From assembly GCA_030837225.1 (NCBI GenBank), contig JAUPKX010000005.1:8049-72048 (forward strand): DNA of 64,000 bases. Reading direction: 5' to 3'. Position numbers and translations under genes: made by a program. Under the pieces are notes generated by a model. That model was not told where the DNA came from and did no database searches. It was given only the letters and a program-made list of their open reading frames with translations. Of this stretch, positions 10,987 through 62,600 are shown one piece after another. Source of the stretch: Patescibacteria group bacterium (GTDB lineage Bacteria; Patescibacteriota; Minisyncoccia; Phycocordibacterales; Phycocordibacteraceae). Each line of letters opens with the position of its first letter. Position 1 is the stretch's first letter.

Positions 10987-10989
10987 CTG

Positions 10990-11045: not shown

Positions 11046-11118
11046 GTAGTAGGCCAAAGCTGGAAGGAAACCCAGGATTCTGGTAGTATCCTCTAGTTCA
11101 GGGAGACAGAAGAAACAG

Positions 11119-23132: not shown

Positions 23133-23133
23133 A

Positions 23134-25364: not shown

Positions 25365-25398
25365 TACCCCAGGAAGAGATTCAGGGTTATCCTAGAGT

Positions 25399-27916: not shown

Positions 27917-27977
27917 GCCCTCCTGCATCCTTGCTTTCCCAACGCGAGTTATAAGCATATGCTAGTGTCATACTGCT

Positions 27978-30813: not shown

Positions 30814-30828
30814 GCGAGATACGGTATC

Positions 30829-31488: not shown

Positions 31489-31492
31489 CACC

Positions 31493-34672: not shown

Positions 34673-34745
34673 GACTTCAGTACTCTTATGGTAACACCGC
34701 CCGTGTATTCATAGGTTTCAGTAATGCTCTGGTATAGTACGCGTC

Positions 34746-36923: not shown

Positions 36924-36928
36924 AAAGA

Positions 36929-37603: not shown

Positions 37604-37681
37604 TGGAGCGGTGAATTACCAAAACTATACCACGCGGTATTTCTTTGACGTGCCCGACCCCGTATACTCAGAGGTACTGCT

Positions 37682-38392: not shown

Positions 38393-38394
38393 CC

Positions 38395-38802
38395 TTAGGT
38401 CTTCTTGAAGACGAACGTCTGGTAGGCCACGTAGGCCGTAATCGCGATTACGCCGCCGCAGATGATCTGTGCCGCGATGTACCAGACGCCGAATGTCGAC
38501 ACGAGCACATACATGAGAGCCGTGTTGATGCAGAGGTTCCCGAATGTGACGAGAATGTATCCACCGAGCTGGATCCCCATCTGATTCGGCTCGCGATTCT
38601 GAAATGCCCAGAATTTCTGGAAGCTGAACCCGGCCGCAATGGAACCTATATAGGAGAGGATAGAGGCAAGGAGATAGTGCACCTCGCCGTACTGCACGAG
38701 AAGGAAAAGGATGAGGATGTTTACTCCCGCAGCCGACGTGCCGGCAATAAGGAAACGCAGGACTTTTTGGACCTGAGCAGAACGCAGTAGGGCGATAATC
38801 AT
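38395..38802 (-). CDS. GtrA-family small membrane protein (polyprenol-P-sugar flippase-like).
   Basis: 135 aa with four TM segments. N-terminal 'KVLRFLIAGTSAAGVNILILFLLV' matches the GtrA consensus. Confidence 0.7.
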   Translation of the reverse strand: MIIALLRSAQVQKVLRFLIAGTSAAGVNILILFLLVQYGEVHYLLASILSYIGSIAAGFSFQKFWAFQNREPNQMGIQLGGYILVTFGNLCINTALMYVLVSTFGVWYIAAQIICGGVIAITAYVAYQTFVFKKT

Positions 38803-42066: not shown

Positions 42067-42146
42067 AACTTTTTTGAAAGAAATTTGTTGCTAACGTTTT
42101 AAAAAACTTATCCACACATAAATTATTTTTTGTAACAAATTATTTA

Positions 42147-42178
42147 TTATGCGCGCATAATATTTTATAGCGCGCATA
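42147..42178. promoter_or_regulatory. Two GC-rich boxes sharing the core GCGCGCATA. One is a perfect 14-bp palindrome, TTATGCGCGCATAA (42147-42160). They sit in an otherwise extremely AT-rich intergenic region upstream of the histone-like gene.
   Basis: Read directly: 'ttatgcgcgcataa' and 'tatagcgcgcatac', about 19 bp apart. Confidence 0.35.
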
Positions 42179-42254
42179 CGAAAGAAATTTTTCGTAAGAA
42201 AAACTTCTTCTATGCGGGTCGACAATACTAGTCATAGAAAATTTTCATTGACCT

Positions 42255-42443
42255 ATGGCCGCAAAGAAGAAGGCAGTAAAGAAGGCAGTTCGCAAGCCAG
42301 CTAAGAAGGCAGCTCCAAAGAGGAAGCCAGCTAAGAAGGCAGCTCCAAAGAGGAAGGCAGCTAAGAAGGCTGCGAAGAAGTCTGTCAAGAAAGTAGCTAA
42401 GAAGGCTCCTGCAAAGAAGCGCAAGGCTGCAAAGCGCAAGTAG
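42255..42443 (+). CDS. Lys/Ala-rich histone H1-like (Hc1/AlgP-like) basic DNA-binding protein.
   Basis: 62-aa product composed of K/A/P repeats ('AKKAAPKRKPAKKAAPKRK'). A strong terminator hairpin follows. Confidence 0.65.
   Translation: MAAKKKAVKKAVRKPAKKAAPKRKPAKKAAPKRKAAKKAAKKSVKKVAKKAPAKKRKAAKRK
42297..42356 (+). repeat. Perfect 30-bp tandem duplication (x2, plus a partial third copy) inside the histone-like gene.
   Basis: 'gccagctaagaaggcagctccaaagaggaa' at 42297-42326 and again at 42327-42356. Confidence 0.8.
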
Positions 42444-42462
42444 TCCTTAGGACTCTTGTTGT

Positions 42463-42488
42463 AAAAGCCTCCCTCACGGGAGGCTTTT
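42463..42488 (+). terminator. Rho-independent terminator after the histone-like gene.
   Basis: 'aaaagcctccc-tcac-gggaggctttt' followed by a T-rich tract. Confidence 0.6.
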
Positions 42489-42557
42489 ACGTTTTCTTTC
42501 CTGACTGTTACAGAGAGGGCGAATGCGGTATAGTGCCGATACCTATATAGAGTACGT

Positions 42558-45086
42558 ATGGCCAATATTCTCAGCAAAATTTTCTCCAAGAACCAGTCGC
42601 AGGGCTTCGTAAAACAGGCACAGCCTGTTGTTGATCATGCGAACAGTCTCTCGGAGGCGTTTGAGAGCCTTTCAGGAGATGAGATCAAAATACGCCTTGC
42701 GGATGTACGGGGCCGTACTAATGGCGTACCGACTGAAACCGCTGACATAGCCGAGGTATTCGCGCTCGTGCGTGAGGCAGCGCGCCGTACGCTCAACGAG
42801 CGTCACTACGACGTACAGCTCGTCGGGGGTCTTGCCCTTGGAAAGGGAAAGATTGCTGAGATGCGCACCGGAGAAGGAAAGACGCTTGTGGCAACCCTTC
42901 CTGTTTCGCTTTACGCCCTTGCCGGGAAGGGGGTGCATGTGGTGACCGTGAACGATTACCTCGCACGGCGTGATGCCGCATGGATGGGTCAGGTGTATGC
43001 CGCGGTCGGTCTTACGGTTGGTGTCGTTACCAGTGGAGGTGCGTATGTATACGATGCCTCTCATGTTGAGACTGAAGAAGATAAGGCACGTGACGAAGAA
43101 GGGTCCTTCCGTGTCTTCTATGACTTCCTTCGTCCGGCAACGAAGCAGGAGGCGTATGCGGCCGATATTACCTACGCTACCAACAACGAGCTCGGGTTTG
43201 ATTATCTGCGTGACAATACTGCGTACGACGCCTCGCAGATTGTGCAGCGTGGACACCACTACGCGATTGTTGATGAGATCGATTCGATCCTTATCGACGA
43301 GGCGCGTACGCCACTCATTATCTCAGGGCCTGCAGGAGACGCTGAGGGTCTGTACGAGCGCTTCGCGTCCATCGTGCGTAACTACGTACAGGAAGAGGAC
43401 TATACTGTCGACGAGAAGCAACGCGCTGTGCAGATAACAGAAGAAGGTATTTCTAAAGCGGAGAAGGCACTCGGTATCGAAAACTTGTACGCCGAGGGCG
43501 GTATGAAGTATGCGCATCACCTTGATACGGCCGTACGAGCAAAAGCCCTCTTCAGGGGAGACAAGGAGTACGTCGTTAAGGAAGGAGAGATCGTTATCGT
43601 TGACGAGTTCACGGGGCGCCTTCAGCCAGGGCGTCGCTGGAGCGAGGGTCTCCACCAGGCTATTGAGGCTAAGGAGGGTGTGCCGATCCAGAAAGAGACG
43701 CGCACGTATGCGTCAGTTACGTTCCAAAACTATTTCCGTATGTACGAGGCTGTTGCCGGCATGACGGGTACCGGTCTTTCTTCAGAAGAGGAGTTCTATA
43801 CGGTGTATGGGCTTGAGGTTGTGCAGGTACCTACACATCGTCCGATTGCCCGAAAGGATTATGACGATCTTATCTTTCAGAATGCACGCGGGAAGTACAC
43901 GGCGCTCGCGGCACACGTGAAGGAGGTGCATGAGAAGGGGCAACCAGTTCTTATTGGAACGGTATCTATTGAAGACAACGAGGTGGTGAGCGATGCGTTG
44001 CACGAGGTTGGCATTCCGCACGAAGTGCTGAACGCAAAGAATCATGAGCGCGAAGGAGAGATTATCGCGAGTGCCGGCAGGAAGGGCGGTGTTACGGTTG
44101 CAACCAACCTTGCAGGGCGCGGTGTCGACATTAAGCTCGGCGGCATCGGTGCATCTGAGGAAATGCGTGAAGAAGTCCGATCGTTTGGCGGCCTTGCGGT
44201 TATCGGTACCGAGCGCCACGAAGCACGCCGCATTGATGACCAGCTTCGCGGGCGTTCTGGGCGCCAGGGCGATCCGGGTGAGACACGGTTCTTTGTCTCG
44301 CTCGACGACAAGCTCATGCGCGTCTTCGCATCGGATATGGTCAAGAACGTTATGGGATCCTTCAAAATCCCTGAAGACGAGCCGATACAGAGCTCGTTAA
44401 TCACTAAGGCGCTTGAGACCGCCCAGAAGCGTATTGAAGGCTTCAACTTCGACTCACGCAAGCAGGTGCTCTCCTATGATGATGTGCTTAATACACAACG
44501 TCTGTCGGTATACCGCGAGCGCATGACTGCCCTCAAGGGAACTAACGAGGAGATCGAAGAGCTCATACGAATGATGATTGCTGGAAGCCCTGAAGCGGTT
44601 ACTGCCTTCGAGCAGAAGCGTGAGGAGTTTGGACCTGAAGCCGTTGCGATGCTTATGCGCCGCCTGCTACTCCAGGTTACGGATACCTTCTGGCTCGAGC
44701 ACCTCGAAACGATGGATTATCTTCGTCGCTCAGTGTCTCTGCGTGCGTACGGACAGCGCGATCCGCTTATTGAGTATCGAAGGGAGGGTCTTGTGCGTTT
44801 CCAGACAATGCAGGAAAGCATCGCTACAGCAGTTGCTGAAGCGATTCCCCGCATACGTCCGGCAGACGATGCTCGCATTCGAGCAGAAGAAGAGAAAACG
44901 CGCGCAAGACTCGTTGCAGCGTCAGAGGGGAGCGACACAAGCGCCGAAGCTCCAGAGCCGGTCCGGAACGAGAACGCGTACAACAGGAACGACGAGGTAA
45001 CAATTAAGAAGGGGGAAGAGACGCAGACTCTGAAATATAAGAAGGCAGAGCCACTTCTTTCAGATGGTTGGACGATCGTCTCGTAA
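42558..45086 (+). CDS. secA: Preprotein translocase ATPase SecA.
   Basis: 842-aa product with DEAD-motor motifs ('MRTGEGKTLVATL', 'DEIDSILIDEARTPLIISG') and the SecA scaffold. Confidence 0.9.
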   Translation: MANILSKIFSKNQSQGFVKQAQPVVDHANSLSEAFESLSGDEIKIRLADVRGRTNGVPTETADIAEVFALVREAARRTLNERHYDVQLVGGLALGKGKIAEMRTGEGKTLVATLPVSLYALAGKGVHVVTVNDYLARRDAAWMGQVYAAVGLTVGVVTSGGAYVYDASHVETEEDKARDEEGSFRVFYDFLRPATKQEAYAADITYATNNELGFDYLRDNTAYDASQIVQRGHHYAIVDEIDSILIDEARTPLIISGPAGDAEGLYERFASIVRNYVQEEDYTVDEKQRAVQITEEGISKAEKALGIENLYAEGGMKYAHHLDTAVRAKALFRGDKEYVVKEGEIVIVDEFTGRLQPGRRWSEGLHQAIEAKEGVPIQKETRTYASVTFQNYFRMYEAVAGMTGTGLSSEEEFYTVYGLEVVQVPTHRPIARKDYDDLIFQNARGKYTALAAHVKEVHEKGQPVLIGTVSIEDNEVVSDALHEVGIPHEVLNAKNHEREGEIIASAGRKGGVTVATNLAGRGVDIKLGGIGASEEMREEVRSFGGLAVIGTERHEARRIDDQLRGRSGRQGDPGETRFFVSLDDKLMRVFASDMVKNVMGSFKIPEDEPIQSSLITKALETAQKRIEGFNFDSRKQVLSYDDVLNTQRLSVYRERMTALKGTNEEIEELIRMMIAGSPEAVTAFEQKREEFGPEAVAMLMRRLLLQVTDTFWLEHLETMDYLRRSVSLRAYGQRDPLIEYRREGLVRFQTMQESIATAVAEAIPRIRPADDARIRAEEEKTRARLVAASEGSDTSAEAPEPVRNENAYNRNDEVTIKKGEETQTLKYKKAEPLLSDGWTIVS

Positions 45087-45099
45087 TATATAAAAAGAA

Positions 45100-45130
45100 G
45101 AGCCGTCCCGTTTCCAGGGCGGCTCCTTTT
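45100..45130. terminator. Bidirectional hairpin terminator between convergent secA (+) and aspartate kinase (-).
   Basis: 'gagccgtccc-gtttcca-gggcggctc' flanked by A-run and T-run. Confidence 0.55.
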
Positions 45131-45133
45131 CTG

Positions 45134-46474
45134 TCACAGGTGATTTCGAAGTATGTACTCATAGATGGTGCCGACCGTTTCTCGTAGGCGTACCTGTGCA
45201 ACGCCAATGATAAGGTTGGCGCGGTTTCCACCGAGTTCATAGAATATAGGTTCTATGCCTCGTACCGCGAGTACATTCAGGATATGGGTTACCTTCACGA
45301 AGCTTCTCCCGAGATCCTGGCCGACAATACAAACAATGCCGATTTCAGACGTTAGAGTCACCTCAGCGGAGCATGAGTCCCGGATCGCTTGCGCGATCGT
45401 CTCACGCTGGTCGCCAATTTTTTTGTCGGGAACGATGACGTCCAATGTATCGAGCCCGGTTGTTACGTGACAGTCTCCGAGTCCGTACCCAGAAAGCGCT
45501 GAGAGCGCGTCGAGGGTGTTTTGATACTTTGCATTCATTCCTGGCTTCGCGATGGTGAACATCGTGAATCCCGGCTTTTCGGTAATGCCCGTAAAGCAGT
45601 GATTGCTGGCGGCTCGTTTGTCGCCATCAGGGTACACATACGTCCCGGGGTTGTTCGGGGTCTCGAGACCGAAGAGCCTCGTGGAAATCCCAGACTCTCG
45701 AACCGGGCCGACTGCTTCGTGGCCGAGCACGTTTGTGTCGCGATAGGCCATTTCCTGCATCTGCGAGTACCCCATACGACCAATTAGAGTCGGCGGCATA
45801 GGAAGCATTTTTGGATTGGCCACGTACACACCGGGCATATCCGTCGCATACTCGTAGAGTTCAGCTTCAATCATTGCGGCAACAATCGCCCCGGTGTTAG
45901 CGGAACCGTCTCGCGGGAAAGTGTGAATCTTTCCGCGTGAATCGCCAGCGTAGTATGCAGGGACAACTACATTGCCAGAAAGTTTAGCTCGACGAATAGC
46001 ACGCTTGGTCATAATCGCGTCATACCGTCCTGAAATACTGTATCGAATCAGTTTTGTTGCATCGATACAGCGCCAGTTTGGCCCGAGCATTTCCGTGAAC
46101 ATGAGTGCGCTCAGATATGGGCCACGGCTTTCGATGTAGTCGAATCGATTCTCGCACCGAAGCTTGTTGAAGCGACCTTCAGCTTCACGAAGGTTTGCGA
46201 TAAGCGCGTCCACGAAGCCCTGTTTAAGTTCAAGGTCCTTTGCGATTTCGACGAAGAGCTCCTTCACGGCGCGCATCGTTTCGATTGGATGTTCTGTGTG
46301 TCGTAAGCTCTGGAGAAGCTCAGCAACACTCATGTCGTGCTCAAGGCGCCTTCCGGGGGCCGGCACAACGATGTACCGACGCTTCGGATCGCTGCGAATG
46401 ACTTTGGCGGCCTGCTTGAAACCTTCAGCAGATGCCAGACAGGAGTCGTCAATTTCTAGTACGGTGTCGCCCAT
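45134..46474 (-). CDS. lysC: Aspartate kinase (amino-acid kinase domain plus C-terminal ACT domains).
   Basis: Kinase-fold N-terminus and tandem ACT-like C-terminal region ('IVCIVGQDL...'). Confidence 0.65.
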   Translation of the reverse strand: MGDTVLEIDDSCLASAEGFKQAAKVIRSDPKRRYIVVPAPGRRLEHDMSVAELLQSLRHTEHPIETMRAVKELFVEIAKDLELKQGFVDALIANLREAEGRFNKLRCENRFDYIESRGPYLSALMFTEMLGPNWRCIDATKLIRYSISGRYDAIMTKRAIRRAKLSGNVVVPAYYAGDSRGKIHTFPRDGSANTGAIVAAMIEAELYEYATDMPGVYVANPKMLPMPPTLIGRMGYSQMQEMAYRDTNVLGHEAVGPVRESGISTRLFGLETPNNPGTYVYPDGDKRAASNHCFTGITEKPGFTMFTIAKPGMNAKYQNTLDALSALSGYGLGDCHVTTGLDTLDVIVPDKKIGDQRETIAQAIRDSCSAEVTLTSEIGIVCIVGQDLGRSFVKVTHILNVLAVRGIEPIFYELGGNRANLIIGVAQVRLRETVGTIYEYILRNHL

Positions 46475-46572
46475 GGCACACCTCCTATTCTGATGTGAGT
46501 GGATACGTTCTCAAGGAACGCCTGTTCGCATCATGCCTATAATACTAGGTAAAGTCAACGTTCTGTGGTACC

Positions 46573-47562
46573 ATGCATAAAATGGCTTTCGTTGATGAGA
46601 TGCACGTACACGCAGTAGCCGGACACGGGGGTCCGGGTGTTGTGCGATGGCTCCATATGAAAGGGCAAGACAAAGGCGGTCCCGCCGGAGGCGATGGTGG
46701 ACGCGGTGGCGACATTATCGTAGAGACCGTTCGCGATCTTGGTGCACTCGCTGCGTATCGTTACACGAAGCGCATCAAGGCAGAGAATGGAGGGCCGGGC
46801 GAGGGTAACGACCGTCACGGGAAGGATGGTGAGCCAGTAGTACTCAAGCTCCCGGTTGGGAGTACGGTAGCGGTCTCCTCAACAGGTGACGTGTTCGACC
46901 TTCTTAAGGAAGGGGAGCGTATCATCGTTCTCAAGGGAGGACCTGGAGGTTATGGCAATGCCCACTACAAAGGCCCGACAAATCAGAACCCGATGAACTC
47001 CATGCCGGGTCGAAACGGCCAGACTGGGGATATCCATATCACCCTTAAGCTCATCGCTGACGCGGGTCTTATCGGCTTCCCGAACGCAGGGAAGTCCTCC
47101 CTCTTGAACGAGCTCACCCGTGCGCGCTCTCGTGTCGGCGCCTATCCGTTTACGACGCTCGATCCTCATCTCGGAGATTTCTATGGGCGTATTCTTGCTG
47201 ATATTCCAGGACTTATCGAGGGTGCCTCGGAAGGGCGAGGTCTCGGTTCTCGGTTCCTCAAGCACATAGAACGTACTAAGTTTCTTGTACATCTCGTCTC
47301 GGTTGAACAAGAAGACGTTGTTGCAGCCTATAGGGCCATACGGGACGAACTAAGTGCGTTTGGTAACGGTCTGGACGAGAAGGAAGAGCTGGTGGTGCTC
47401 TCGAAAGTGGACCTCTTGACCCCAGAAGAGGCTGAAAAGCTCCGAATTGGCCTGGAGGAGGCAGCAGGGAAGCGGGTGCTCGCACTCTCCATTGCAGACG
47501 AGAATCTCCTGAAGGCATTTTCCGATACGCTCACGAAAGAGCTAACCCGGGACGAGGCGTAG
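46573..47562 (+). CDS. obg: GTPase Obg.
   Basis: Gly-rich Obg fold 'GGPAGGDGGRGGDII', G-domain 'GFPNAGKSSLLN' and 'DIPGLIEGA'. Confidence 0.85.
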   Translation: MHKMAFVDEMHVHAVAGHGGPGVVRWLHMKGQDKGGPAGGDGGRGGDIIVETVRDLGALAAYRYTKRIKAENGGPGEGNDRHGKDGEPVVLKLPVGSTVAVSSTGDVFDLLKEGERIIVLKGGPGGYGNAHYKGPTNQNPMNSMPGRNGQTGDIHITLKLIADAGLIGFPNAGKSSLLNELTRARSRVGAYPFTTLDPHLGDFYGRILADIPGLIEGASEGRGLGSRFLKHIERTKFLVHLVSVEQEDVVAAYRAIRDELSAFGNGLDEKEELVVLSKVDLLTPEEAEKLRIGLEEAAGKRVLALSIADENLLKAFSDTLTKELTRDEA

Positions 47563-47600
47563 GTGGCGGGGGAACTTGTGCCTGTGCTAGCATCACTCCT

Positions 47601-49031
47601 ATGAGCGAATACCGACCGACCATAGGCCTTGAGATCCATGCTGAGCTAAACACTTCAACGAAGATGTTCTGCTCCTGCAAGAACGAGCCTGAGGGCTCTG
47701 AACCAAACGTGCATGTCTGCCCGGTATGTATGGCTCACCCTGGAGCGCTACCGGTTGCGAACAAGGAGGCAGTGCGAAAGGTGCTTCAAGTCGGGACTGC
47801 TCTCGGCAGTACGCTCGCGGACTTTACTGAGTTCGATCGCAAGAGCTATTTCTATCCAGACATTCCGAAGGGATATCAGATCAGCCAGTACGAACATCCT
47901 CTCGTTTCAGGAGGTGAGCTCGCTGGCGTTGCGATCACGCGCGTGCATCTTGAAGAAGATACGGCACGCTCGTCGCATACAACAAGTGAAGGGGTTAGTC
48001 TTGTTGATTTTAATCGAGCCGGGGTGCCACTCATGGAGCTTGTTACAGAACCCGTTATCCATGACGCAGAAACAGCAGGAGTATTTGCGCGTGAGCTTCA
48101 GCTCCTCCTTCGAACCATTGGCGCGTCGCATGCAAATCTTGAAAAGGGAGAGATGCGAATCGAGGCTAATGTTTCGGTCTCAAAAGATGGCACCATGGCA
48201 AAGAAATATGTGGAGGTTAAAAATATAAACTCCTTCCGTTCGGTCGAACGTGCGATTGCATTTGAAATTGCACGACAGTCAAAGCTCATTGACGAGGGAG
48301 GTGTCGTTTTGCAAGAGACGCGCGGGTGGGACGAAGGAGGCCAGAAGACCTTCTCGCAGCGCCTTAAGGAAGGGAGTGCCGATTACCGCTATTTCCCGGA
48401 ACCAGATCTTCCGAAACTTATCCTCTCAGAGATACCTGAGTTTGCCGCCGAGGCATTGCGTGCGTCGTTACCCGAGCTGCCTTGGGAACGAAGAGCGCGA
48501 TACCGAGAACTCGGTCTCAAGGAAAACGACATAGTGTTTCTTGCGGGCTCAAAGGAACGAGGGGAATTTTTCGATGCTGTCATTACCGAAGTTGAGGGCG
48601 ACACCGATCTCCTCATCGCGTGTGCAAATTACCTCATCTCTGACGTAGCAGGTTGGTATACAAAAAGCAGCAAGGAGGAGTATGAAGGACTCGCTCCAAC
48701 TTCGTTAGTTTCGTTAATTCGGCTTGTGTCCAAGGGAGACCTTTCTTCCCGTGGTGCCAAGGATGTCCTCGTAGTCCTCTTAGAAGAGGGAGGTGATCCA
48801 GAGACCATCGCCAAGGATCGAGGATTAATCCAGGTTAGTGACGAGAACGCGCTTCATGTGGCGGTCCTAGGAGTCCTTAGAGAGCACGAGGGTCCTGTGG
48901 CGGAATATCGGTCAGGCAAGGAATCGTCCCTTCAATTCCTCATAGGTATGGGTATGAAGGCAACCCAAGGAGCCGGCAATCCCGGTACGCTTAAGAAGCT
49001 TCTCCTCGAGGAGCTCAACAAGGGGACGTAG
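47601..49031 (+). CDS. gatB: Asp-tRNA(Asn)/Glu-tRNA(Gln) amidotransferase subunit B.
   Basis: 'PTIGLEIHAELNTSTKMFCSC' N-terminus and the overall GatB motifs. Confidence 0.85.
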   Translation: MSEYRPTIGLEIHAELNTSTKMFCSCKNEPEGSEPNVHVCPVCMAHPGALPVANKEAVRKVLQVGTALGSTLADFTEFDRKSYFYPDIPKGYQISQYEHPLVSGGELAGVAITRVHLEEDTARSSHTTSEGVSLVDFNRAGVPLMELVTEPVIHDAETAGVFARELQLLLRTIGASHANLEKGEMRIEANVSVSKDGTMAKKYVEVKNINSFRSVERAIAFEIARQSKLIDEGGVVLQETRGWDEGGQKTFSQRLKEGSADYRYFPEPDLPKLILSEIPEFAAEALRASLPELPWERRARYRELGLKENDIVFLAGSKERGEFFDAVITEVEGDTDLLIACANYLISDVAGWYTKSSKEEYEGLAPTSLVSLIRLVSKGDLSSRGAKDVLVVLLEEGGDPETIAKDRGLIQVSDENALHVAVLGVLREHEGPVAEYRSGKESSLQFLIGMGMKATQGAGNPGTLKKLLLEELNKGT

Positions 49032-49158: not shown

Positions 49159-50067
49159 ATGGATGAGATAACTATTGGTGACAAGACATATGTCTCGTCA
49201 AAGCAGGCGGCAAAAATTACTGGTTACGCGAAAGACTATGTCGGTCAGCTTTGTCGAGAAGGGAGAGTAGAGGCTCGCTTAGTTGGCCGTAACTGGTATG
49301 TACTAGATTCAGCTATCCGAGAGCATAGATTTGGAAAGGAAGATGAAGTTGAGCTGGTAGTTAAACAGGAGCACGCCGTTACTGATAGAGCCTCAACATG
49401 GCAGAAGCCTCAGTATGTAGCTGAAACGCCTGTTTTAGTGCCTGAATTTAGCAATAAGGCAACAGAAACTGTGGGATCTCCGGCAATTGCTGATATGCAG
49501 TCTGCATGGAGAGAGTGGTTCGATGAGAAAAAGCCTCCACAGGTAGCGTTACCTGACGGGTCTGATGACTTTAAGGATGAGTATCTTCCAATAATCGTAC
49601 CAGAAACCGCTCCTGAGCCTGTTTTAGAGGCTCCAGCGATAGCGCAGACACAGAACGCTGACCAGGAAGAAATAGTCGCTATCTCACGAATTCGAAACCC
49701 TGAGCCAGAACCGCTAACAGTCGCAGAACAAGCAATACCGGAAGAAGAAAGAGTTGAGCTACATCGATCATATGCAACAGCGAACACTCCCCGCGAGGAA
49801 TACGAGGAAGTCTATCCAGAACAGCCGTTTGTTCGACAGGCACAGAGGCCAATAACTAAGCCAGCTGCTGTAGAGGTTAAGACATCGGGCAGCAGCATCG
49901 TCGTACGCGCACTCCTAGTCGTCGTATCTGTAGCTGCAATACTTACAGCGCTTATAGGAACAGGGAATGCGGAACAGCTTCTTTCAGGAACGAGCCTTGA
50001 TTACGGAGTGCAGAAGTCGATAGTAGACTTTCTCGGAGGAAAGAGCACGTATAAAAGTAGCTTATAA
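49159..50067 (+). CDS. Hypothetical protein with an N-terminal excisionase/MerR-like HTH-like domain, an acidic Pro/Glu-rich linker and a C-terminal TM helix. The N-domain is paralogous to the start of the downstream giant gene.
   Basis: 'SSKQAAKITGYAKDYVGQLCREGRVEARLVGRNWYV' fits the HTH_17-like pattern. C-terminal 'IVVRALLVVVSVAAILTALIG' is hydrophobic. Confidence 0.5.
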   Translation: MDEITIGDKTYVSSKQAAKITGYAKDYVGQLCREGRVEARLVGRNWYVLDSAIREHRFGKEDEVELVVKQEHAVTDRASTWQKPQYVAETPVLVPEFSNKATETVGSPAIADMQSAWREWFDEKKPPQVALPDGSDDFKDEYLPIIVPETAPEPVLEAPAIAQTQNADQEEIVAISRIRNPEPEPLTVAEQAIPEEERVELHRSYATANTPREEYEEVYPEQPFVRQAQRPITKPAAVEVKTSGSSIVVRALLVVVSVAAILTALIGTGNAEQLLSGTSLDYGVQKSIVDFLGGKSTYKSSL

Positions 50068-50679: not shown

Positions 50680-53600
50680 TTGAACTCTCTTCTCCAGAAA
50701 AATTTAATCTCAACGAAAGAGGCTTCTGCACTTTCTGGTTACAACGCCGACTACTTGTCGAGACTTTGTCGTGAGAAGAAAATTGCGAGTTCACAAGTTG
50801 GTCGCACGTGGCTGATTGAGAGAGCCTCACTCGAGGTTTTCATGGAGACTCAATTAGATAGGAAAATTGAGCTTGCTGAGAATCTTGCTCGGGAGAGGGA
50901 GCTTGAATATAGAAAGGCAAATAGTTCTGTCACCCAGGTTTTTGAGGCGGGGAATGATCTTGAGAATAAGATGCGCGTGGCAGCGAGTTCAATGCTTGGA
51001 GCTTTTTCCTCTGTACGCATACCACGTTCTATGCCAGTTATGAGTGGTCGTGCATTTGCTGCAGGACTTACTGCAGTCATACTCGGCGCTAGCGTAACAC
51101 TAGCGGGTAGTGGCGTTGTGGCACGCGCAGGTGAAATGTTATTGGCTTCAGCATTTGAGGTTCGCGCACTCGTTGTTACTGCTGTCTCCACATCAAACTC
51201 ACTTGCAGTAGAGAAGACTGCGGAATTTTCTAGAATTGCAGAAGATGAAATAAAAAAAGTAGACACATCGCTTGTTCGTGCGGCAGACACACGAGTGGCA
51301 ATGTTTCCCCTTACTCTCGGTGGAGTCATTGAGAATTCACACGAGCCGGTAGAGATGACTGAACTCGCGTATGCCCGTGCAAATGAAATCTTTGAAACGT
51401 ATCCCGAGCCTATTGCGTCCACGCAGACGGTTGAAAAAATCATGTATGCAGCAATGCACCCTAAAGAAGTGCTGGCAACAATTGCACGTGAGGCGATGTT
51501 TGCATACAGCCGACTTGGCGTGTACGCACTCAACGATATTCAAACCGTCCTCGCTCTTCACCTATATGGAGTTGAGGCGGCAGCGAACGGCCTCCTATCA
51601 GTTAGTGACAATACGAGGGATATCGCAGGACAGGCACCACTAGCTATCGGAAATGCATTTGTTACTACGTCCTCTGCAGTGCTGTCTTCGTACGAACATG
51701 CGGTCTACGCATATGTCGAGAACATTGATGTACTACCGAGCGCTATCACCGGTTTGGTATACGGGCTCGGGAACGGTATTGGCGGCTCAGTAGCGATGGG
51801 TGTACAGACTGCACCGGTTGCCTACGAAGAGAGCGTACTGGCCTTCGTAGAGGAGTCAGTATCTGCAGGATCGATGATCTCCGAAGGCTCGTTCGCCTTT
51901 GGAAAAGAAGCAGATAGAACGGTTTCAGGCCTTCTGGAAGCTGAGGACCGTGCCATAGTCCAGTCAGTAGAGAGTGTAAGGCTGGCCGTTACGAGTATTG
52001 AGAACACGACAGCAAGCGCAGCGCTCGCCATCGAATCAGTACCCTCAGTGGCTACTGACAAAGTCCTTGGAATTGTGGGAGGTATTGCACTTCGTATCGA
52101 GTCGACGGATACCAGCATGCTCTCAGCATCGCCGCTAGTTTCTCTTGATATTGATCGATTCATTCCGGGGTTCCTACGGAACGTAACTGCGGTTCTGGCG
52201 CATGCAGTGGGCAGCGCTTTCCACGGAATCTTCGGTCCGCTCGCTGGTTTCTTCGGCGCGTCGGAAGAAGTGGGACTCGCGGTTATCCCAAGCGATGGGA
52301 GTTCATTCTCTGGACCAAGTGGTGCAACCGGTACGGAAGAGGCAGTGAAAGGAAACACGACGGTCTATACCGGACCGGTAACCATCGTACGTAACGAATA
52401 CCCAACGGTGACGTACGGCGGGGTACCGCAGTCCTACGTCGACGAGCGCTACGAGTTCCTTCGCCGTACGCTTTATAACCGAATCGAAGATGTTTCAAAT
52501 GACGACACGTTCTACGGCGAGGTACGAGATAGCGGTATTTACGATAGCAGCATTGTTGATTCGACTTTTACCAATGGCGAAATCATCGATTCAACAATCA
52601 CTGGAGGAACTATCACGGGCGCTGCCCTCGATGTTTCGACCTCGACTATCACTGGCTCGCTAACTGTTAATGGAGACATCGCAGCTAATGCCATTGTCTC
52701 GACAAGCTCGACAAGTACGAACGCTACGTCAACGAATCTTTTTGCAACTAATGCATCCTTCACCAACCTTCTTGGCGGGAGTGCAACAATAACGAACGCA
52801 ACCTCGACATCGTTCTACGCAACACTCGCAACCATCGTTGATGGATTCTTCACGAACCTCACCGCGACACTCGCAACCATTACGAATGCGGTTATCACAA
52901 ACCTCACCGCAACGAACGCGACGCTCACGAATGCGACATCGACTAACGCTACGTCAACGAACCTCTTCGCCACCAACCTCACGGCTACGAGCGCAACCTC
53001 AACAAACCTCTTTGCTACAAGTGCACGCATCACGACCGGTATCATCGACGCGCTCACCTCACCGCTCGCAACCATAACCACTGCGATTGTCACAAACCTC
53101 ACGGCAACGAACTCAACGCTTACAAACGCAACCTCAACAAACTCGTTCGCACTTTCGTACCTCACCCCGTCCAGACTCTTGTCCGTCGGATCGAATGGCG
53201 TCGCAACCTCAACCAGCCTTTCCTCATGGGTTGCGGGTACCCTAAACCAACTCACCGTAACGGATAACGGTACCGGGGGAATCACACTCTCGCTCCCTTC
53301 GACCATTGCGATCGGCACCTCGCAGGTAACTACCATCCGAAGCGATGGTGCTACCTCGACCTTTGGTGGCGGTATTCAGGCCTCTATTGTCGAGGGAGGG
53401 CAGTATATCGCTGGTCCGTACGTCCTTGCTACCTCAACAACCGCTACCTCTGCATTCTCGGGCAATATTGCAGTTGGCAGGAATGCGACCTTTGGAACCA
53501 GTGCCTCTGATCTCCTTACGGTTAATAGCTCCGTAGCATCAAACCTCATTCCGACCACCAACAACACGTATGACTTCGGCTCAACCGCAAGCTACTGGCG

Positions 53601-56600
53601 CCGGGGCTATATAGACGACCTTACCGTTAACAATCTCTCGGCCGCATCGACTTCTATTGCAGGTACGGTTTCAAACTCGTTTACAATTAACGCCGACAAC
53701 GCGACGAACGACACGGAGGACGTAACACTCATTTTCAAGAGGGGCACCGCATCACCAAATGCGCTCATGACGTGGAATAGCTCAACGGATCGTTTTGAGT
53801 TCAACATGCCGGTATTCTCCGCAACCGGCCTCTTCACGAGCGCAACTTCGACAAACTTCGGCACCACGAACTTCACCCTTAACAGCAACACCTTCACGAG
53901 TCTTCTTGGTACGGGACTCTCGAACGTGAGCGGTGCACTTACGGTTGATTACGACGCCCTCGATTCCGACTTCTTCCGTCAGGGAGGGAACTCATACGCA
54001 ACTACTGCAATGCTCGGTACAAATGATGCTAACGATCTCGCGTTTGAGACGAATGGTACGACGAAGATGACGATCCTTTCGGGAGGGAATGTTGGTATCG
54101 GCACCACGACACCAACCGGCAGACTCTCCATTGTTGCGAGCACAACCGGGGACTCACTCGTGATAGCAAGCACTACGGGCGCCCGCATGCTCACCGTTAA
54201 TCCAGGCGGATCCCTCATCTTCTCTGCAACGGGCCAGTCATACAAAGTGGTGTCTGGCGCAGACGAATATGGCCCAGACATTTTCCTTAATCGCACAATA
54301 GGGACCGAAGCGACCGCGAACGAGCACGGCATCATCGATCGCAACCAATTTGGAAGGGCGACCAAGGCCTATAACTCGTACGATTCTCAAACATACTTCA
54401 CTGGTACGAGTAACTACGACCACTACGCCGGCTTCCAGGCGCGGGGCGTGATGAATTCATCCGGTACGCTGACGGACTACTACTCGTTCTACTCAGCGCC
54501 TCAAGCAAGTGCAGGAACCATAACGAACGTATACGGGCTCAAGGCAGCTAATCCAGCAGGTGCAGGTGCAGTTACGAACAACTACGGTGTCTATATTGAT
54601 AGTCAGACGAAGGGAACGAATAACTTTGCCATCTACACAGATGGCACCACGAAGTCCTATTTCGGAGGAAACGTCGGCATCGGTACAACGACACCATCTT
54701 CTCTCCTCGACCTGTATAAGAGCACGGACGGATACACCAAAATAACCGTACGGAACCCGAACACGGGTACTGATGCGTTAACTGGTATAGATTTCGTGCA
54801 GGACCTGGGCGGCGTGGGATCCTTGTACGCTACAGGAAATACCTTTGACGGAAATGCAGACTTTGGCGCAATGTCAGGCTTCTCGAATAGCCTCTGGTTA
54901 GACGCATCGTTTGAACTAACTGGAGGCTTGAAGCTCGTAGCACGCAATGGAGACATTGGCTTCTATGCAGGAAGTAGATCGACACAGAACGTAACAATAT
55001 CGGGTACGAATGGAAACTTAGGCGTTGGCTCAACCACGCCGTATGCAAGACTCTCTGTTAAGGGAGCAGGTACAACTACCGGTGTTAACTTCCAGACCAC
55101 CAACTCAAGCAACTCACCACTCTTTACGGTACTTGATAGCGGTAACGTTGGTATCGGTACTACAACACCTGCCGAGCTACTCACCATTGATAGCGGAAGT
55201 CTCCGTTTCGAGTCAGTAAGCGCAGGGAGAGGAATACTCGCCAGCAGTAACGGTGTTAACCAGGTGTTCTCACTTACGCGGCAGGATACGGTTGCGTCTG
55301 CCGACCTATCAATATCTGGGTACGGGGGGGTCGGTATTACGGGCGGAAGGACGTCATCTCCTGCTACATCTGCCTACCACTTGTACGTAAATAGTGCCGG
55401 CAACGTTGGTATCGGTTCTACCACTCCAGCTGAGAACCTCACGGTTAACGGAGCAATTCAGTGGGGTAACACAACTCCTTCTACAGGAACAGCAAATATC
55501 TATAACTCAGGACGGCTCGGCACATACAACAGTGGTGCGTCACCGCTTGCACAATACAATTACGTGCAACCAGCAACAGGGAAAGCGCTTGTTGTCTGGA
55601 ACGCAAACAGCAATATAGTTGCAGCGTTCGGTCAGACCGGTAGTGATACGAACACTAACTCCTATTTTGCAGGCAACGTGGGTATTGGTACTACAAGCCC
55701 AGCTCAGAATCTGCATATAGATCAGGGCACAGCAAGTACCCTCCCTATTATTCAGCTTAGCGGAGCAGGCGGAACCATCGCAAAAATTGGTCGGGCAAGT
55801 AATTTCATGAATGCCGGAACTGCCGCTGACCTAGGAATTAATGCTCCGACAAGTCAATCACTGTATCTCGGAGTGGGCGGCTCATCGTTTGTAACACTTA
55901 AATCGACAGGCAACGTGGGTATTGGAACAACGACGCCTATCGGCAAACTCACCGTCTACGAGGATTCTGACGCCGTGATGTACACCGCTAATCCTTCTGC
56001 CAATGTATTCTCAGAAAACTACATTGACACAACCAACAATGTTACCAACCACCGGTCCGTTGCGTACGCTCACCAGTTTTACACTTCTGGTAGCACGATA
56101 GCAGCAGCAACAGAGAAGATGCGTATACACCAAAATGGAAACGTCGGTATTGGTACTACCTCACCTGAAGCAGCGCTCACCGTTAATGGAGATATAAAGA
56201 CAAACGGTGGCTTTACGACATACGCAACAAATGAAGTGTTTAAGGCTATAAACGGCGGTACGAGTGCTGTGGCGGCTCGCTACGGCAATAGCAACAATGA
56301 TTTCTATGTCGGTACAGAAGGCAATACTGCGGGAGGCTACTTCACCGGTGCACTCGCAAATAGCTCTGTACTCTATAGTACCCGCGCAGTGCAGACCATC
56401 ATAGGAGGAGTATCGAGAATGATTATTGATACGTCAGGCAACGTTGGTATTGGTACGACCAGCCCAGAAGGGAAGCTTGATGTCAATGCTGGACTCGGGG
56501 TCTACTCATACATTGGAGGTTCAGTACTGGGACATAGAAGCATCCGTATGGGCGCTGACGCTAGTGGGTATGCAACGATTCAAGGCACAGGAAGAGGTAC

Positions 56601-59600
56601 ACAGATAGGGAGTTTCTTTAACATAACGCTACAGCCAGGCGGTGGCAACGTTGGTATTGGCACTGTGAGTCCTGGGGAAAAGTTAGAGGTTTCTGGAAAT
56701 ATAAAGCTTTCGACATCCGCTAGTTATCTAGCATTTGGCAATCCGAGTACTCCGCTTTACCTTGGTAGCGGAAACTCTTTATTGTTTTCTCCGGATAATA
56801 ATGAGCAATATGCAGTATTAAGGGGCTATGCTGGGGCTGTATTAGCGGTAGGAGGTAATCCGGGGCTGCTCTTAAACGCCAGTAGCAACGTCGGTATTGG
56901 CACGACGAACCCCGGGACCAAGCTCCATGTCCTCTCTACCAATGCCGGCGGAGACTCAAACACCCTCATGCTAGATAACGCTGGAGCATCCGGCATTACT
57001 ACCACGAGTCTCACGTTCGCGAACGGAGGAGCGGTAAAGGCAAGAATAACGGGTGCTGTGTATGGTGATGGATACCTCGCGTTCAACACGAATGACGATA
57101 CTGAGAAAATGCGTATTACCGCAGTAGGCAGGGTCGGTATTGGAACGACTACACCGCAAGGCAAATTCCACGTTAAGGGCTCAGATGGCGAATCCTTACT
57201 AAGAGTGTCTGGCGCAACAGGAGGTATAAGAATACGCCCGTATGTGGACGCAACCTCAGGCACCTACATTGAAAGTGTGAATACTGCAGAAAGTGCCTAT
57301 CTACCGTTGCGTCTTGAAGCCTCAACGACAATATTAGGCATAAACGGCAATGTCGGTATTGGTACAACCACACCGCTTTCTAAACTCCAGGTTTCAACAA
57401 GTGGTGCAGATGCGTTCAGTCTCGATCTTCTTACAGGAAGCTCTCACGATACCGGCATACGCATCGGACGTGGTAGTGGTGCTAATGGTGCAGGAATACA
57501 GATGGTGACTTCCGCTACAGACTATCTTAGTTTCTACGTAAATGGTTCCGCGCTCCCTGCTATTAATACAGCAGCTCAGATGGTGCTTACGGAGGGTGGC
57601 AACGTCGGTATTGGTACCACGGGACCGTTAGGAAAACTCCATGTCCTAACCTCTACCGACACCACACCAAACACCATTGCGGCGTTTGATGCACGGCACG
57701 CTGTCTTCGGTCCAGGCACTGTCGATGGTGTTTCTATCTCTAAGACAACGGGGGGTAGTGCCTACATCAGCTCCGTTCGTCCAGGTATTGCATGGGATCC
57801 GCTAGCTGTACAAGCAAGTACCTTTAGTGTTAATCCTAGTAGCGGTACCACAGCCTTCCATGTTACTGCGGCAAGCAACGTCGGTATCGGCACGGTATCT
57901 CCTGGAAGTAAATTACAAGTTAGTACGGGCAACTCTAGTTATGTAGCCAGCACAGCCGCCTTTTCTGTGCGGAAAAACGAAGAGGGGTACGGACTGTTTG
58001 TTGGTAATGCCAGCTCTGGCAACAGTTGGTTACAGGCAGGCTATTCCGACGGCTCACTACTCTATGACTTGATACTGCAACCTAATGGCGGAAAGGTTGG
58101 TATTGGTACTACGACGCCTTCGGAAAAGCTTTCGGTTGCAGGAGACATCTTTGTGAGTGATGCCACAGACCCAGAACTCAAACTCAATAAGACTAGCGGT
58201 ACTCAAAAAACATTCTCGTTTAATGTAAATAATGACAACGCATTTCAATGGCTAGACAGGACAGCAGGCCTTACGCGCTTGTACCTCACGACAGGCGGCA
58301 ACATGGGTATCGGGGACTACTACGGGGCAACTACCAATACCCCACAGAATAAGCTCTCAGTAGCAGGAAGTGCGTCGATCGGGTATGCCGTGGGTAGTGA
58401 TGTTGCGGCTCCTACCAATGGCCTCATCGTTAATGGCAACGTCGGTATTGGTACTACCACTCCACAGGAGGAACTATCAGTCTCGAAGAACGGCGTTCCA
58501 CAGATTAGCCTTGAAAATAGGAGCGGCACTACTCGTAACGCCCAAATCATATTCCGCAATACAGCGGGTCCTACGTGGCGGCTCGGTACGGACATGAGCA
58601 CCAATAACAATACGGACAACTTCCAAATCTATAAGGATGCCCTAGGTCTTCCGGTGCTTACTATCGACTCCGCGGGTGACGTCGGTATCGGTACCGGACA
58701 TACAAATCCACTCTACCCACTCGATGTAAATGGACTCGCTCTCATTCGCGGATACACGGTTGGTGTTACCGCCGCACTCGCTGATGCCTATAAGTTTACC
58801 CATGACGGCGGAACCTCATTCGTGAACAACCAAGGAGGGAGCTTTGGTGTCGGCACAACGACCCCAACAGTTGAAATGGAAATTGGTGGTAGCAGCTCGC
58901 CATCATTACGTTTGCGTCCGTATTTCGCAGGCGCTCCTGACGCAAGCGGGTACTACACAACAATTAATGCGGCGTACTCTGATGAGGCAATGAATCTTAG
59001 TGTTGGTGGCTACAAGGTGCTCTCAACACTCGGCTACGACACTCCGACTCAGTTGCTTCTCTACACAGGCAACACCGAGCGATTGCGCATTAATTCCTCA
59101 GGCAACGTTGGTATTGGTACCTCGAACCTCTTTAAGCCCCTTACGGTTGAAGTAGGAACTGCGGGAGGTGTTAATCAGGGAATTGTAATAAACAGCTCAC
59201 ACGCTTTCGGTAGCGGCCAGGGAACGGCTGCAGCAGCGCTTGTGTTCGCGCGCAATCGCACTATAGACACCTCATCTTTGTATGCTATGGCGCAGATCGA
59301 TGGAGGAAATGAGAGCGAAACCACGAGTGCATACGGCTACCTTGCGTTCTCAACTGCGAACAGTGGCGGAACGCTGGTGGAGCGAATGCGCACTTCGTCC
59401 TCAGGCAACGTCGGTATTGGTACCACCACTCCAGACTCAAAACTCAATATCCAGATGGCGGGAGATGGAACGGGACTTGCTATAAATTCGAGCTACTCAG
59501 CAGGAGGATACAAAAAAATCATTGACGCCGGTCAGACTGGTTCGGACGGGTATCTCAAAGTGAACGACGCGCTCGGTGCCACGGTGAGTTACTTGAGTGG

Positions 59601-62600
59601 CTACACTTCGAGTCCTTCATATTTCTTGAGTAGTGTCGGTATTGGTACAAGTACCCCGGTAAGTAAGTTCAGTGTGTATCAAGCATCAGGTGCAGGAAGG
59701 AGCATTGCCGAATTCTCCAATGGTAACAGGGACCGGATGCTCCAGGTCGTACATGATATTTCTGGAGACTCAACCTCTTACATCGGTCTCAATGCCCGAG
59801 AATTTGGATCGACTCTTGGACGTGACTTCGTCATTCAGACAGGAGGGACTGAAAGAATGCGCGTAGCGTATTCAACAGGCAACGTCGGTATTGGTACCGT
59901 GAATCCCGGCGCAACGCTCGACGTTAAGAGCCAGATCAACCTAACTAATGCAACCGGTAATTCGATGGTAGGAGTCAGGGGGACTGAGTTCGGATATGCT
60001 GCGGGCTACAAGGCGCTGCAGATAGGAGCTACATCTGGCACCTACACCGTAAGTATCGGCTACGATCCGTCGACCAACGCAAGCCCAGCATTCACGGGGG
60101 ACGGCAGTGAGGTTATCTTCAGGAACGGCGTGAAGTTCCTAACGCCGAACGCTGCGAATAATAGCTATCTCAGCACCATGACGATGCTGAATGGCAACGT
60201 CGGTATTGGCGAGACTGCTCCAAGTGAGAAACTCGTTGTTGCAGGGCAGGGAACAGGCAGGATGCTCGTTGGAGACGTAGGGTTCGGTGACGGGTACACG
60301 GGCCTTTCGATGAATGGCGTACTTTCCACCACGAATTACAACCTCTTAGGCTCGCCTGGTCAGGCGCACTTTTGGATTAATCGTGCAACAGGAGGGAATA
60401 TCAGCTTCCGTGAGAATAACGGTACCGACCAGATGACTATTGCGTCAGGTGGTAACGTTGGTATTGGTGTAACTGCCCCTGACGGCAAGCTTCATATTCT
60501 CAACAATACGGCCTCGCAAGCGTTAAGTAGCGGTAGTATTCGGCTCGCCGGTTCCGCATACGCATCTTCAGGATGGGCAATGCGCATACCTGATGACGGA
60601 TCTACGGGAAATTTGTACTTCGACAGGGAATACGCCGGCTGGGCTTCAACCCCTGTCCTTATGTTGCAACGATCTACAGGCAACGTAGGTATTGGCACAA
60701 CAAACCCTACCGCTAAGCTAACGTTGAATGGAACTGCCGGAGCTAATCCAAATGCTGGTGCAGAGATTGAGTATACAAATGCGCTTATTTTCCAATCAAG
60801 CAGCGCACATTCCGTTGGTGCAATTAAAACAGTGCAACCAACTGGGTACTATGTGGATGCTGCCGACATGACTTTCTCTACAGGATACGGCAGTTTAACT
60901 GAACGTATGCGTATTCAGGGCAGCACAGGCAACGTCGGTATTGGCACCACAACTCCATCCGGAACCCTTGATATATACAAAGCAGGCAATGCCACCCTTA
61001 ATATAACGGGTACTAACATCGCGGGCATAAACCTGAAGGGTGATAATGGTAGTGGATTTGCAAACATAAACACCTACAACGACGGTACCTTGCGTATAGG
61101 GGCAAGCGTCTCTGGATACAACTCAGGCACAACAGATCTTGTGATTAAGAATGGTTATGTTGGTATGGGTACTGCAAGTCCGCTAGCCAGGTTACAGGTT
61201 GGTGATAGTGCATCTCTCACTAATTATCAAGGTGCAACTGTAGGTATCGTACGGCCTGCCGGCTCAGGCTCATGGTTAGAGTTAGCTGACAACACAACTT
61301 ACGGCTCGGCGTTCCGTATTTCGCAGGATTCAAATAGTGGAATAGCTTTTAACTCTAATGGTCGTGATATTGGTTTTAGGGCAAGCGGCTATAGTACTGC
61401 CATTGCCGATGCGCAGCTTGTTTTGAAGTCGTCGGGTAATGTCGGTGTCGGCGCCCAAATTCCGCTGGCAAAATTACACGTACAGCAAGCGCTACCAACT
61501 AGCATTGGCAGTTTGCCATCAAATGTCGGCCTAATCTTAGATTCAAACACTCACAACTACTTGCTATTTAGAAACACCGCCGATAATAGTACGTATTCCG
61601 GACTTCAATTCCAAGATAATAATGTCGGGGGATATTTGGTATTCCAAAATTTTAGTGGCGGCGTCACAAGCGACAGCATGCTCTTTGGTACATATCAGGA
61701 CTTTGTCTTCCAAACTGGTACTTCGGAAACAGTTGGGGGCAAGAGCACAGTTATGACGATTAAACAGACTGGAAACGTTGGTATTGGTACAACCAATCCT
61801 CTCGCTATAGATGGCGGTGCTGCAACACGCTTTCACACTAAAGTTACGGGTGGAACAGGGAATATTGAAGTGGCTCGATTTGAAGGAGGCGACGATACCG
61901 ATAACACCTACGCAGTGTTGCGCGTAAACCATAACAACGATCGCGGTTTCTTTGTGAAAGGTGGGCGGCAGACAGGGGACACGGCCATAGCTACCATGGG
62001 ACTCACAAACAATGGAGGAGCAATGACAGACATCATGACATTCCTCGGCAGCAACGTTGGTATTGGAAATACCTCTCCAGGCGAAAAACTCACCATTGAA
62101 GGCAACAGTGCTGCCATGCTCATTCAGACGGCATCTGATCCTACGGTCTATCGAGCAAAGATCACTGCTAACTACAACTATACGAACTCAGTACTCTTCA
62201 CGGGACTCAACAACACGGAAATTATTGGCCAGTATGCGTATAACGTTACGGTAGGTAATTCGTCAGGTAACGTTGGTGTCGGTACAACAGGTCCAACTCA
62301 GAAGTTCTCTATTCTCGCCACGGGCATATCTAATCAATTCGAACTTCGCAATAATAATCAGGCCCTTTGGATTCGCCAAGGATACAAATCGGATGGAACC
62401 GCTACCCCCGCCGCAGACACAAATAATGTGCAGTTCCAGTCAAGTGGAAGCTCTAGCGGTACCTTCTCCTTCACTAGCGGAAACGATGAAGTGTTGCGTA
62501 TGACACTTGGTAGTAGTGGTATACGATTCAATGCCTATGGAGCAGGTACGCTCGTGACTGACGCTTCAGGAAATATAACCGCATCATCTGACGAACGTCT

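Follow-up and report, generated by a model that had tools for sequence, protein, structure and literature searches.

A Thr/Asn pentad repeat with a predicted beta-helical fold in a giant, tail-fibre-related surface protein of a Patescibacteria group bacterium, and its relation to a nearby GtrA/GT2/GT-C gene trio

Several described systems resemble the locus considered here. The autotransporter and two-partner secretion (TPS) adhesins, such as Vag8, TibA, pertactin, Ag43 and EtpA, have right-handed beta-helical passengers; the S74 tail fibres and tailspikes, such as the endosialidase tailspikes and the T5 L-shaped fibre, share a chaperone motif of the S-D-x-R-x-K type; and the pentapeptide-repeat proteins (Rfr fold, MfpA, Qnr) are built of 5-residue units in tandem, in which Asn or Asp precedes a hydrophobic or small residue at the centre. 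A set of a family 2 glycosyltransferase (GT2), a GtrA protein and a GT-C membrane transferase is found in GtrA/GtrB/GtrC (O-antigen), CsbB/GtcA/YfhO (teichoic acids) and Ppm1/Pmt (proteins). We analysed a 64,000-nucleotide stretch from an uncultivated, Paceibacteria-like bacterium of the Patescibacteria group (assembly GCA_030837225.1, contig JAUPKX010000005.1, positions 8,049 to 72,048), hereafter the window, which contains a giant surface-protein gene with a Thr/Asn-rich segment (52560-53170) and, upstream of it, a trio of GT-C, GT2 and GtrA genes that matches this set. The initial annotation proposed that the giant protein is a heavily glycosylated substrate of the trio. We favor a different reading, with a probability of roughly 70%, in which the segment is a beta-helix built of pentads, its N-x-S/T sequons arise from the repeat as a by-product, and the trio serves a separate glycan locus.

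The giant gene and its repeat array have the following extents:

50680..63999 (+): giant surface-protein gene, with a probable TTG start at 50680, extending beyond the window end
52714..53163 (+): pentad array, x-T-N-[A/L]-[T/F/S], frame residues 687-836, with 30 uninterrupted pentads and no indel

The segment corresponds to residues 635-839 of the giant frame and includes the string quoted in the initial annotation. Its unusual composition is real, with 57 T (28%), 30 A (15%), 25 S (12%) and 21 N (10%) among 205 residues, whereas the "dozens" of sequons attributed to it are 12 N-x-S/T sites (x being any residue except Pro), to be compared with 8.3±2.1 (maximum 16) in 2,000 residue shuffles. 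The entire giant frame contains 70 sequons versus 67.9±7.0 expected, and two D/E-x-N-x-S/T sites of the PglB type. A density of ~6 sequons per 100 residues counts as dense in absolute terms, by general judgement rather than against a computed background; it is no higher than the composition of the segment predicts, and is accounted for by that composition.

The position of the sequons is set by the repeat. Thr occupies position 2 in 25 of the 30 pentads, Asn position 3 in 18, Ala or Leu position 4 in 24, and Thr or Phe position 5 in 22, and all 12 sequons share a single register, N3-x4-[S/T]5. Identity autocorrelation of the segment peaks at lags of 5, 10, 15, 20 and 25 residues (z of 6-10), lag 15 being the highest. 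With Asn placed at position 3 and Thr or Ser frequent at position 5, the pentad repeat generates N-x-T/S sequons by itself, and in statistical terms they are its by-product. At the DNA level there is only one 45-nt imperfect repeat, and the Thr codons ACG, ACC and ACA are mixed; therefore the segment did not arise by a recent tandem duplication, and its period is kept at the protein level.

An exhaustive HMMER search with the pentad module retrieved 94 representative clusters, compared with five obtained in a word-indexed protein search with the segment. Pentad arrays are present in 88 of 96 related proteins, with a maximum of 218 pentads in a single protein, and across these proteins Thr is found at position 2 in 80% and Asn at position 3 in 67% of the pentads. 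The short indels that we inspected within the repeat in the homologue alignment are multiples of five, as illustrated by the 5-residue insert in P0002. In clean arrays, Ser or Thr stands at position 5 in 61% of the pentads with Asn at position 3 and in 57% of those with other residues (p=0.37). An apparent association between N3 and S/T5 obtained at first (odds ratio 1.6-2.5) was driven by Pro-containing pentads that do not belong to the family, and was gone once they were removed. A Pfam hmmscan of the isolated segment at E<=10 identified no pentapeptide or other family apart from a chance match to Baculo_PEP_C, and a tblastn search with the segment against 50,697 phage records gave no match, possibly through low-complexity masking. 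We take the antisense open reading frame (ORF) at 52815-53336 (173 aa) to be an artefact of coding-strand composition, which is rich in ACN and AAC.

An AlphaFold2 monomer model of giant-frame residues 620-920, obtained from a five-sequence alignment, is all-beta, with a predicted local distance difference test score (pLDDT) of ~90 over residues ~709-800 and strand breaks ~15 residues apart. In this model the pentad segment is predicted to be a compact right-handed beta-helix, probably with three pentads (15 residues) per turn, and we infer a helix core packed by the residue at position 4, which is small or hydrophobic, and ladders formed by Thr and Asn. The structural matches to the model include pertactin, Ag43 and many tailspikes, at lower Z, as well as the beta-helices of phage receptor-binding proteins and tailspikes; pentapeptide-repeat proteins are not among the matches listed. 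The latter point bears on whether the segment could be a pentapeptide-repeat (A(D/N)LXX) domain of the canonical type, with the four-sided Rfr-type beta-helix. Such an assignment would agree with the strict 5-residue period, and most positions of T-N-[A/L]-[T/F]-x conform to the textbook pattern [S,T,A,V][D,N][L,F][S,T,R][X]. However, the segment differs from these proteins in having no profile match, in its predicted three-sided shape with a 15-residue super-period instead of four pentads (20 residues) per turn, and in being an extracellular part of a giant filament, and we consider the assignment highly improbable. The segment might also be more than a passive shaft, its ladders serving as a face to which ordered water, ice or a host glycan binds, by analogy with beta-helical ice-binding adhesins. 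This function appears scarcely more credible, as the motif appears to occur on all three pentads of a turn and not on one flat face, the segment is membrane-proximal and not at the filament tip, and the helices of autotransporters and tailspikes score higher structurally.

Comparison with the autotransporter passengers reveals a different geometry, ~19 residues per turn in the passengers versus a 5-residue unit and probably 15 residues per turn in the pentad helix, and 9-17% identity, that is, no sequence similarity. The giant protein also has neither a beta-barrel nor a TPS domain; Patescibacteria are generally regarded as single-membrane. With the glycosylated adhesins TibA/AIDA-I and HMW1/EtpA the giant protein would have a beta-helical repeat domain in common, as judged from the model, and no counterpart of the dedicated cytoplasmic transferases that serve these adhesins, a heptosyltransferase (GT9-like) for TibA/AIDA-I and an HMW1C-type N-glycosyltransferase (GT41-like) for HMW1/EtpA, was detected, as neither Glyco_transf_9 nor GT41 matched any of the ~42 window ORFs scanned.

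The proposed glycosylation trio comprises three genes:

38395..38802 (-): GtrA-family small membrane protein (Pfam PF04138, 73.9 bits, exceeding the gathering score of 26.1)
36929..37603 (-): GT2 similar to polyprenyl-phosphate-hexose synthases, 224 aa, soluble catalytic domain only (Pfam PF00535, 120.7 bits)
35520..36923 (-): GT-C-fold membrane glycosyltransferase, 467 aa, all-helical, without a soluble domain

The coordinates and family calls made initially for these genes, and the call of an O-antigen-ligase/TPR protein, are correct. In the proposed route, GT2 would make a polyprenyl-phosphate sugar, GtrA would aid its flipping, and GT-C would glycosylate Thr/Ser or Asn of the segment outside the membrane in a Ppm1/Pmt-like manner. 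The trio differs from the known three-component systems in that its GT2 has no transmembrane (TM) segment of its own and in that its genes, clustered within 3.3 kb, are interrupted by a methyltransferase gene on the opposite strand. The best NCBIfam models for GT2 are AglJ, dolichyl-P-hexose transferase and PpgS, all below the equivalog cut-offs, so the call is at the family level. The GT-C protein misses the PMT_2 gathering score (24.7 versus 26.1 bits) and has no PF02366 match; some of its homologues pass PMT_2. Its fold is confirmed structurally, with AglB, Pmt4, ArnT, ALG12 and PIG-M (GPI-MT-I) scoring equally, and a PDB profile search gave only a weak match to a GPI-mannosyltransferase. 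The protein has no luminal or extracytoplasmic soluble (MIR) domain, which excludes only the eukaryotic PMT type, and bacterial Pmt enzymes likewise lack MIR domains.

The genomic context of the trio is formed by the following genes:

20467..35537: remaining polysaccharide locus, with epimerases/dehydratases, six GT4 domains, GT2, deacetylase and methyltransferases (Pfam)
33383..34672 (-): Wzx-type flippase (Pfam)
37..1440: priming Bac_transf gene, at the window start
38879..41056 (+): Wzy_C (O-antigen-ligase/polymerase-type) membrane protein with C-terminal TPR, 725 aa (Pfam PF04932, 70.5 bits, and TPR families)
41053..49031: housekeeping block between the glycan locus and the giant gene, with MurB, SecA, an AA_kinase-family gene (-), Obg and GatB (Pfam)

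The trio is thus embedded in a ~20-kb locus with the Wzx-type flippase and the Wzy_C/TPR protein. The many glycosyltransferases and methyltransferases reported nearby were recovered as GT4, GT2 and methyltransferase genes, and the suggestion that they build a methylated glycan is a reasonable one for a cluster rich in GT4 enzymes and S-adenosylmethionine-dependent methyltransferases; from the gene content, the product may well be a methylated envelope glycan. The presence of Wzx, Wzy_C and GT4 enzymes around the trio points to a glycan rather than a protein as the acceptor. In three other lineages, the GT-C homologues are always located in a glycan locus beside a Wzx flippase, methyltransferases, glycosyltransferases, Wzy_C/TPR and SecA. 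One of these loci (L088, 203-3930) contains two more PMT_2-type GT-C genes (567 and 370 aa) in addition to the trio, hence GT-C paralogues multiply within these clusters.

The ~12 kb that separate the giant gene from the trio contain genes that the initial annotation omitted: five housekeeping genes (MurB, SecA, the AA_kinase-family gene, Obg and GatB) and a gene for a 302-aa protein with a helix-turn-helix (HTH) domain. In the close relatives L090/L092 and L093 (674-kb and 405-kb contigs), in which SecA is 93-94% and Obg 94-97% identical, the order Wzy_C/TPR-MurB-SecA-Obg-GatB-HTH-giant gene is kept, the giant proteins have 3,484 and 4,480 aa, and the pentad segment is 70% identical in the 674-kb relative. 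GT-C, GT2 and GtrA are absent within 10 kb upstream in L092 and L093, where a different set of glycan genes is found. No GT-C homologue cluster is located on a contig of either length, which suggests that the trio is absent from both contigs entirely. A pentad-bearing giant gene without the trio is also present in L006, and that of a distant pentad-bearing giant protein (P0105) is located among housekeeping genes. Conversely, L084 and L088 have the trio followed by unrelated genes after SecA, with no giant gene at that position.

The co-occurrence of the trio with the giant gene, which the initial annotation had put forward as a check, fails in these relatives, and with it the proposed enzyme-substrate link. 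The link is further opposed by sequons that are not enriched over composition and follow the repeat register, by the five housekeeping genes in between, and by a GT-C that is always found in a Wzx/Wzy_C locus, is equally close to AglB, ArnT, ALG12 and PIG-M, and lacks the soluble domain of Pmt4, AglB and PglB. Moreover, PMT-type enzymes act on unfolded chains, and a folded beta-helix would be a poor substrate for them. We therefore regard glycosylation of the segment by the trio as very unlikely.

The glycan gene sets upstream of the conserved block differ entirely in content. That of L092 (1-9660) includes GT47, Glyphos_transf, CTP_transf_3 and a pyruvyl transferase, and that of L093 (1-9863) Asn_synthase, TylF and GT4 enzymes. 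Judging from gene content, the glycan locus (window 20467-38802) behaves like a swappable serotype cassette among strains with ~94% identical SecA. Inside the conserved block, the AA_kinase-family gene (45134-46474, -) is only 28.5% identical to its L093 counterpart, compared with 94-97% for the flanking genes, and is absent in L090; it appears to be fast-evolving or replaced.

Several observations weigh against the reading in which the pentad helix and the trio are unrelated. The absence of the trio in the relatives was examined within ±10 kb of the locus, and other GT-C paralogues may be encoded elsewhere in those genomes. A glycan locus with Wzy_C/TPR is always located upstream of the giant gene in this lineage, so that the two may be linked more loosely. 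The fold model is one monomer prediction from the five aligned sequences, its pLDDT falls below 50 beyond residue ~833, and a Foldseek search with the segment model against the PDB found nothing at E<=0.001. Finally, the structural analogues TibA, EtpA and HMW1 are themselves glycosylated beta-helices.

A modification of the giant protein by another route would involve the Wzy_C/TPR protein as an O-oligosaccharyltransferase of the PglL or WsaB/WsfB kind, which moves a glycan en bloc from undecaprenyl-pyrophosphate to Ser, Thr or Tyr, or else a cytoplasmic GT4 acting before export. The Wzy_C domain is common to PglL, PilO, WsaB/WsfB and WaaL, and Wzy_C-domain enzymes glycosylate S-layer proteins and pilins; the window protein differs by its long C-terminal TPR part and adjoins a Wzx-dependent cluster. 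It is a core gene in the lineage and keeps its order relative to the giant gene irrespective of the upstream glycan cluster, both in the window and in L019, L090/L092 and L093. A priming transferase and the Wzx flippase are available, and the top NCBIfam match is "putative O-glycosylation ligase", although far below the cut-off. On the other hand, housekeeping genes separate Wzy_C/TPR from the giant gene as well, and its position would be accounted for just as well by a polymerase or ligase role in the synthesis of a wall glycopolymer. We found no protein-specific feature in Wzy_C/TPR, and the PDB sequence search matched only its TPR part, with no WaaL or PglL. Its homologues form >1,191 clusters at E<=1e-50 versus 94 pentad-family hits, and this difference, obtained with different databases and cut-offs, only suggests a much wider spread. 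Overall, we consider this route unlikely. In every relative examined, Wzy_C/TPR adjoins the glycan cluster and MurB/SecA; it looks like a core envelope gene of Paceibacteria with a possible link to cell-wall synthesis. Its gene overlaps that of MurB by 4 bases (38879-42066), and the two are neighbours in most relatives examined.

In the giant protein the following further features were identified, together with the gene upstream:

49159..50067 (+): 302-aa protein with N-terminal HTH_17-like domain (Pfam E=7.8e-4), upstream neighbour of the giant gene
50707..50853 (+): N-terminal HTH_17/excisionase-like domain of the giant protein (Pfam PF12728, E=1.3e-5, 25.8 bits, just missing the gathering score of 27)
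51052..51126 (+): predicted TM anchor, frame residues ~133-157, the sole strongly hydrophobic stretch
54085..62286 (+): central GNVGIGT module array, at least 27 modules at a spacing of 46-194 residues (regex count)
62587..62757 (+): Peptidase_S74 intramolecular chaperone domain (Pfam PF13884, 36.3 bits, exceeding the gathering score of 22), with the motif SSDERLK within ...ITASSDERLKDIEG...
63709..63924 (+): bacterial surface immunoglobulin (Ig)-like domain (Pfam PF16403, 75.3 bits), and after it a Pro-rich tail, at the window end

The stop-free frame (50656-63999, + strand) has at least 4,448 codons and continues beyond the window end; TTG 50755 and ATG 50842 are alternative starts. The terminus of a full-length relative of 4,524 aa (P0094) lies just past the equivalent of the window end, and the full-length relatives, ranging from 3,484 to 4,524 aa, have the same architecture, with conserved ends and highly variable middles. 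From the N- to the C-terminus, the order is HTH, one TM helix, pentad helix, at least 27 GNVGIGT modules, S74 chaperone and Ig-like domain. The TM call is based on a Kyte-Doolittle profile with a 19-residue window, which exceeds 1.6 only at residues 133-138 of the giant frame, and ~530 unannotated residues separate the anchor from the pentad helix.

A relationship to phage tail fibres, which extends over most of the protein outside the pentad helix, follows from three lines of evidence. The GNVGIGT array matches the PHROG tail-fibre families phrog_9942 (4.6e-60, 13 matched stretches) and phrog_18345 (1.8e-47, 11 stretches), the S74 domain has the S-D-x-R-x-K-type motif of phage fibres, and tblastn with the S74 region matches annotated phage tail-fibre genes. 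Identity to the L090 protein is ~26% in the GNVGIGT middle and 62-82% at the two ends, and the lengths of the relatives differ by ~1,000 residues, which suggests a rapid turnover of modules in this region, similar to that in phage receptor-binding proteins. In contrast to the S74 tail fibres, the giant gene is located among cellular housekeeping genes, the protein is anchored by HTH and one TM helix rather than by a virion adaptor, and, within a total of ~4,500 aa, the chaperone is not C-terminal, being followed by at least 410 conserved residues that include the Ig-like domain. Self-cleavage at S74, if it occurs, would free a large conserved C-terminal fragment. The region from S74 onward (62587-63999), with a coiled-coil-like stretch, the Ig-like domain and the Pro-rich tail, is 82% identical in L090.

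The N-terminal HTH is conserved among the relatives and presumed to be cytoplasmic; it is the only part of the giant protein with an NCBIfam match, "excise" (21.5 bits, under the cut-off). It could be involved in signalling, like the membrane-bound transcription factors, or could be a mere cytoplasmic anchor. The combination of a DNA-binding-type domain, a membrane anchor and an extracellular filament of ~4,500 aa is unusual. An excisionase-type HTH_17-like domain starts both the giant protein and its 302-aa neighbour. In L019, L090/L092 and L093, homologues of the latter are encoded directly upstream of the giant gene, and in L008 the homologue is followed by a gene without similarity to the giant one.

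According to the reading that we prefer, the giant protein (~4,500 aa) would be a cell-anchored filament derived from a tail fibre, probably trimeric, for contact with surfaces or a host, in which the pentads would form a rigid proximal shaft ~530 residues outside the single membrane anchor. As its conserved context suggests, the trio would add a lipid-linked side-branch sugar, outside the membrane, to the strain-variable glycan of its own locus. This locus would be exchanged among close relatives, as O-antigen and capsule loci are, and the proximity of the trio to the giant gene would reflect inherited gene order and not functional coupling. A bolder proposal is that the pentads represent an undescribed minimal beta-helix, with three x-T-N-[A/L]-[T/F] pentads per 15-residue turn, of Paceibacteria filaments that act as HTH-bearing, contact-sensing organelles of host attachment, with Thr/Asn ladders glycosylated en bloc by Wzy_C/TPR; we offer it as a speculation that is rather doubtful in its entirety.

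What is new is an unannotated 5-residue (3 × 5) Thr/Asn repeat family within giant, HTH- and TM-anchored filaments of Patescibacteria; fold class, tail-fibre homology and Gtr-type trio all belong to known kinds. The repeat recurs in giant surface proteins of ultrasmall, probably host-dependent bacteria, and the protein described here clearly exemplifies a filament that derives from a phage tail fibre and is anchored in a cell membrane. The pentad family, the filament and the swappable glycan locus bear on cell contact and surface variation in these bacteria. A dedicated protein-glycosylation system with a giant substrate would be the first for Patescibacteria, and the evidence does not support it. 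In the literature that we searched there was no report of protein glycosylation or of S74-type filaments from Patescibacteria, and glycosylation in Saccharibacteria has been remarked to be unexplored (PMC11623550). As a general caution, glycosylation should be deduced from sequon counts in Thr/Asn-rich repeats only after these have been checked against composition and register.

Two other parts of the window deserve mention. A TrwB/TraG-like coupling ATPase (17449-19173) and, beside it, a secreted-type Lamin-tail/PKD protein (19040-20488) are encoded immediately upstream of the glycan locus. The 16S rRNA gene (7183-11050) is split by large insertions into pieces that include 7183-7763 and 8361-9460; two of the insertions encode LAGLIDADG endonucleases (ORFs 7826-8482 and 9978-10706), and one matches a group I intron family (9923-10730). 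Bacteria of this radiation are known for interrupted rRNA genes. Next after the 16S rRNA gene comes tRNA-Ile, at 11119-11194.

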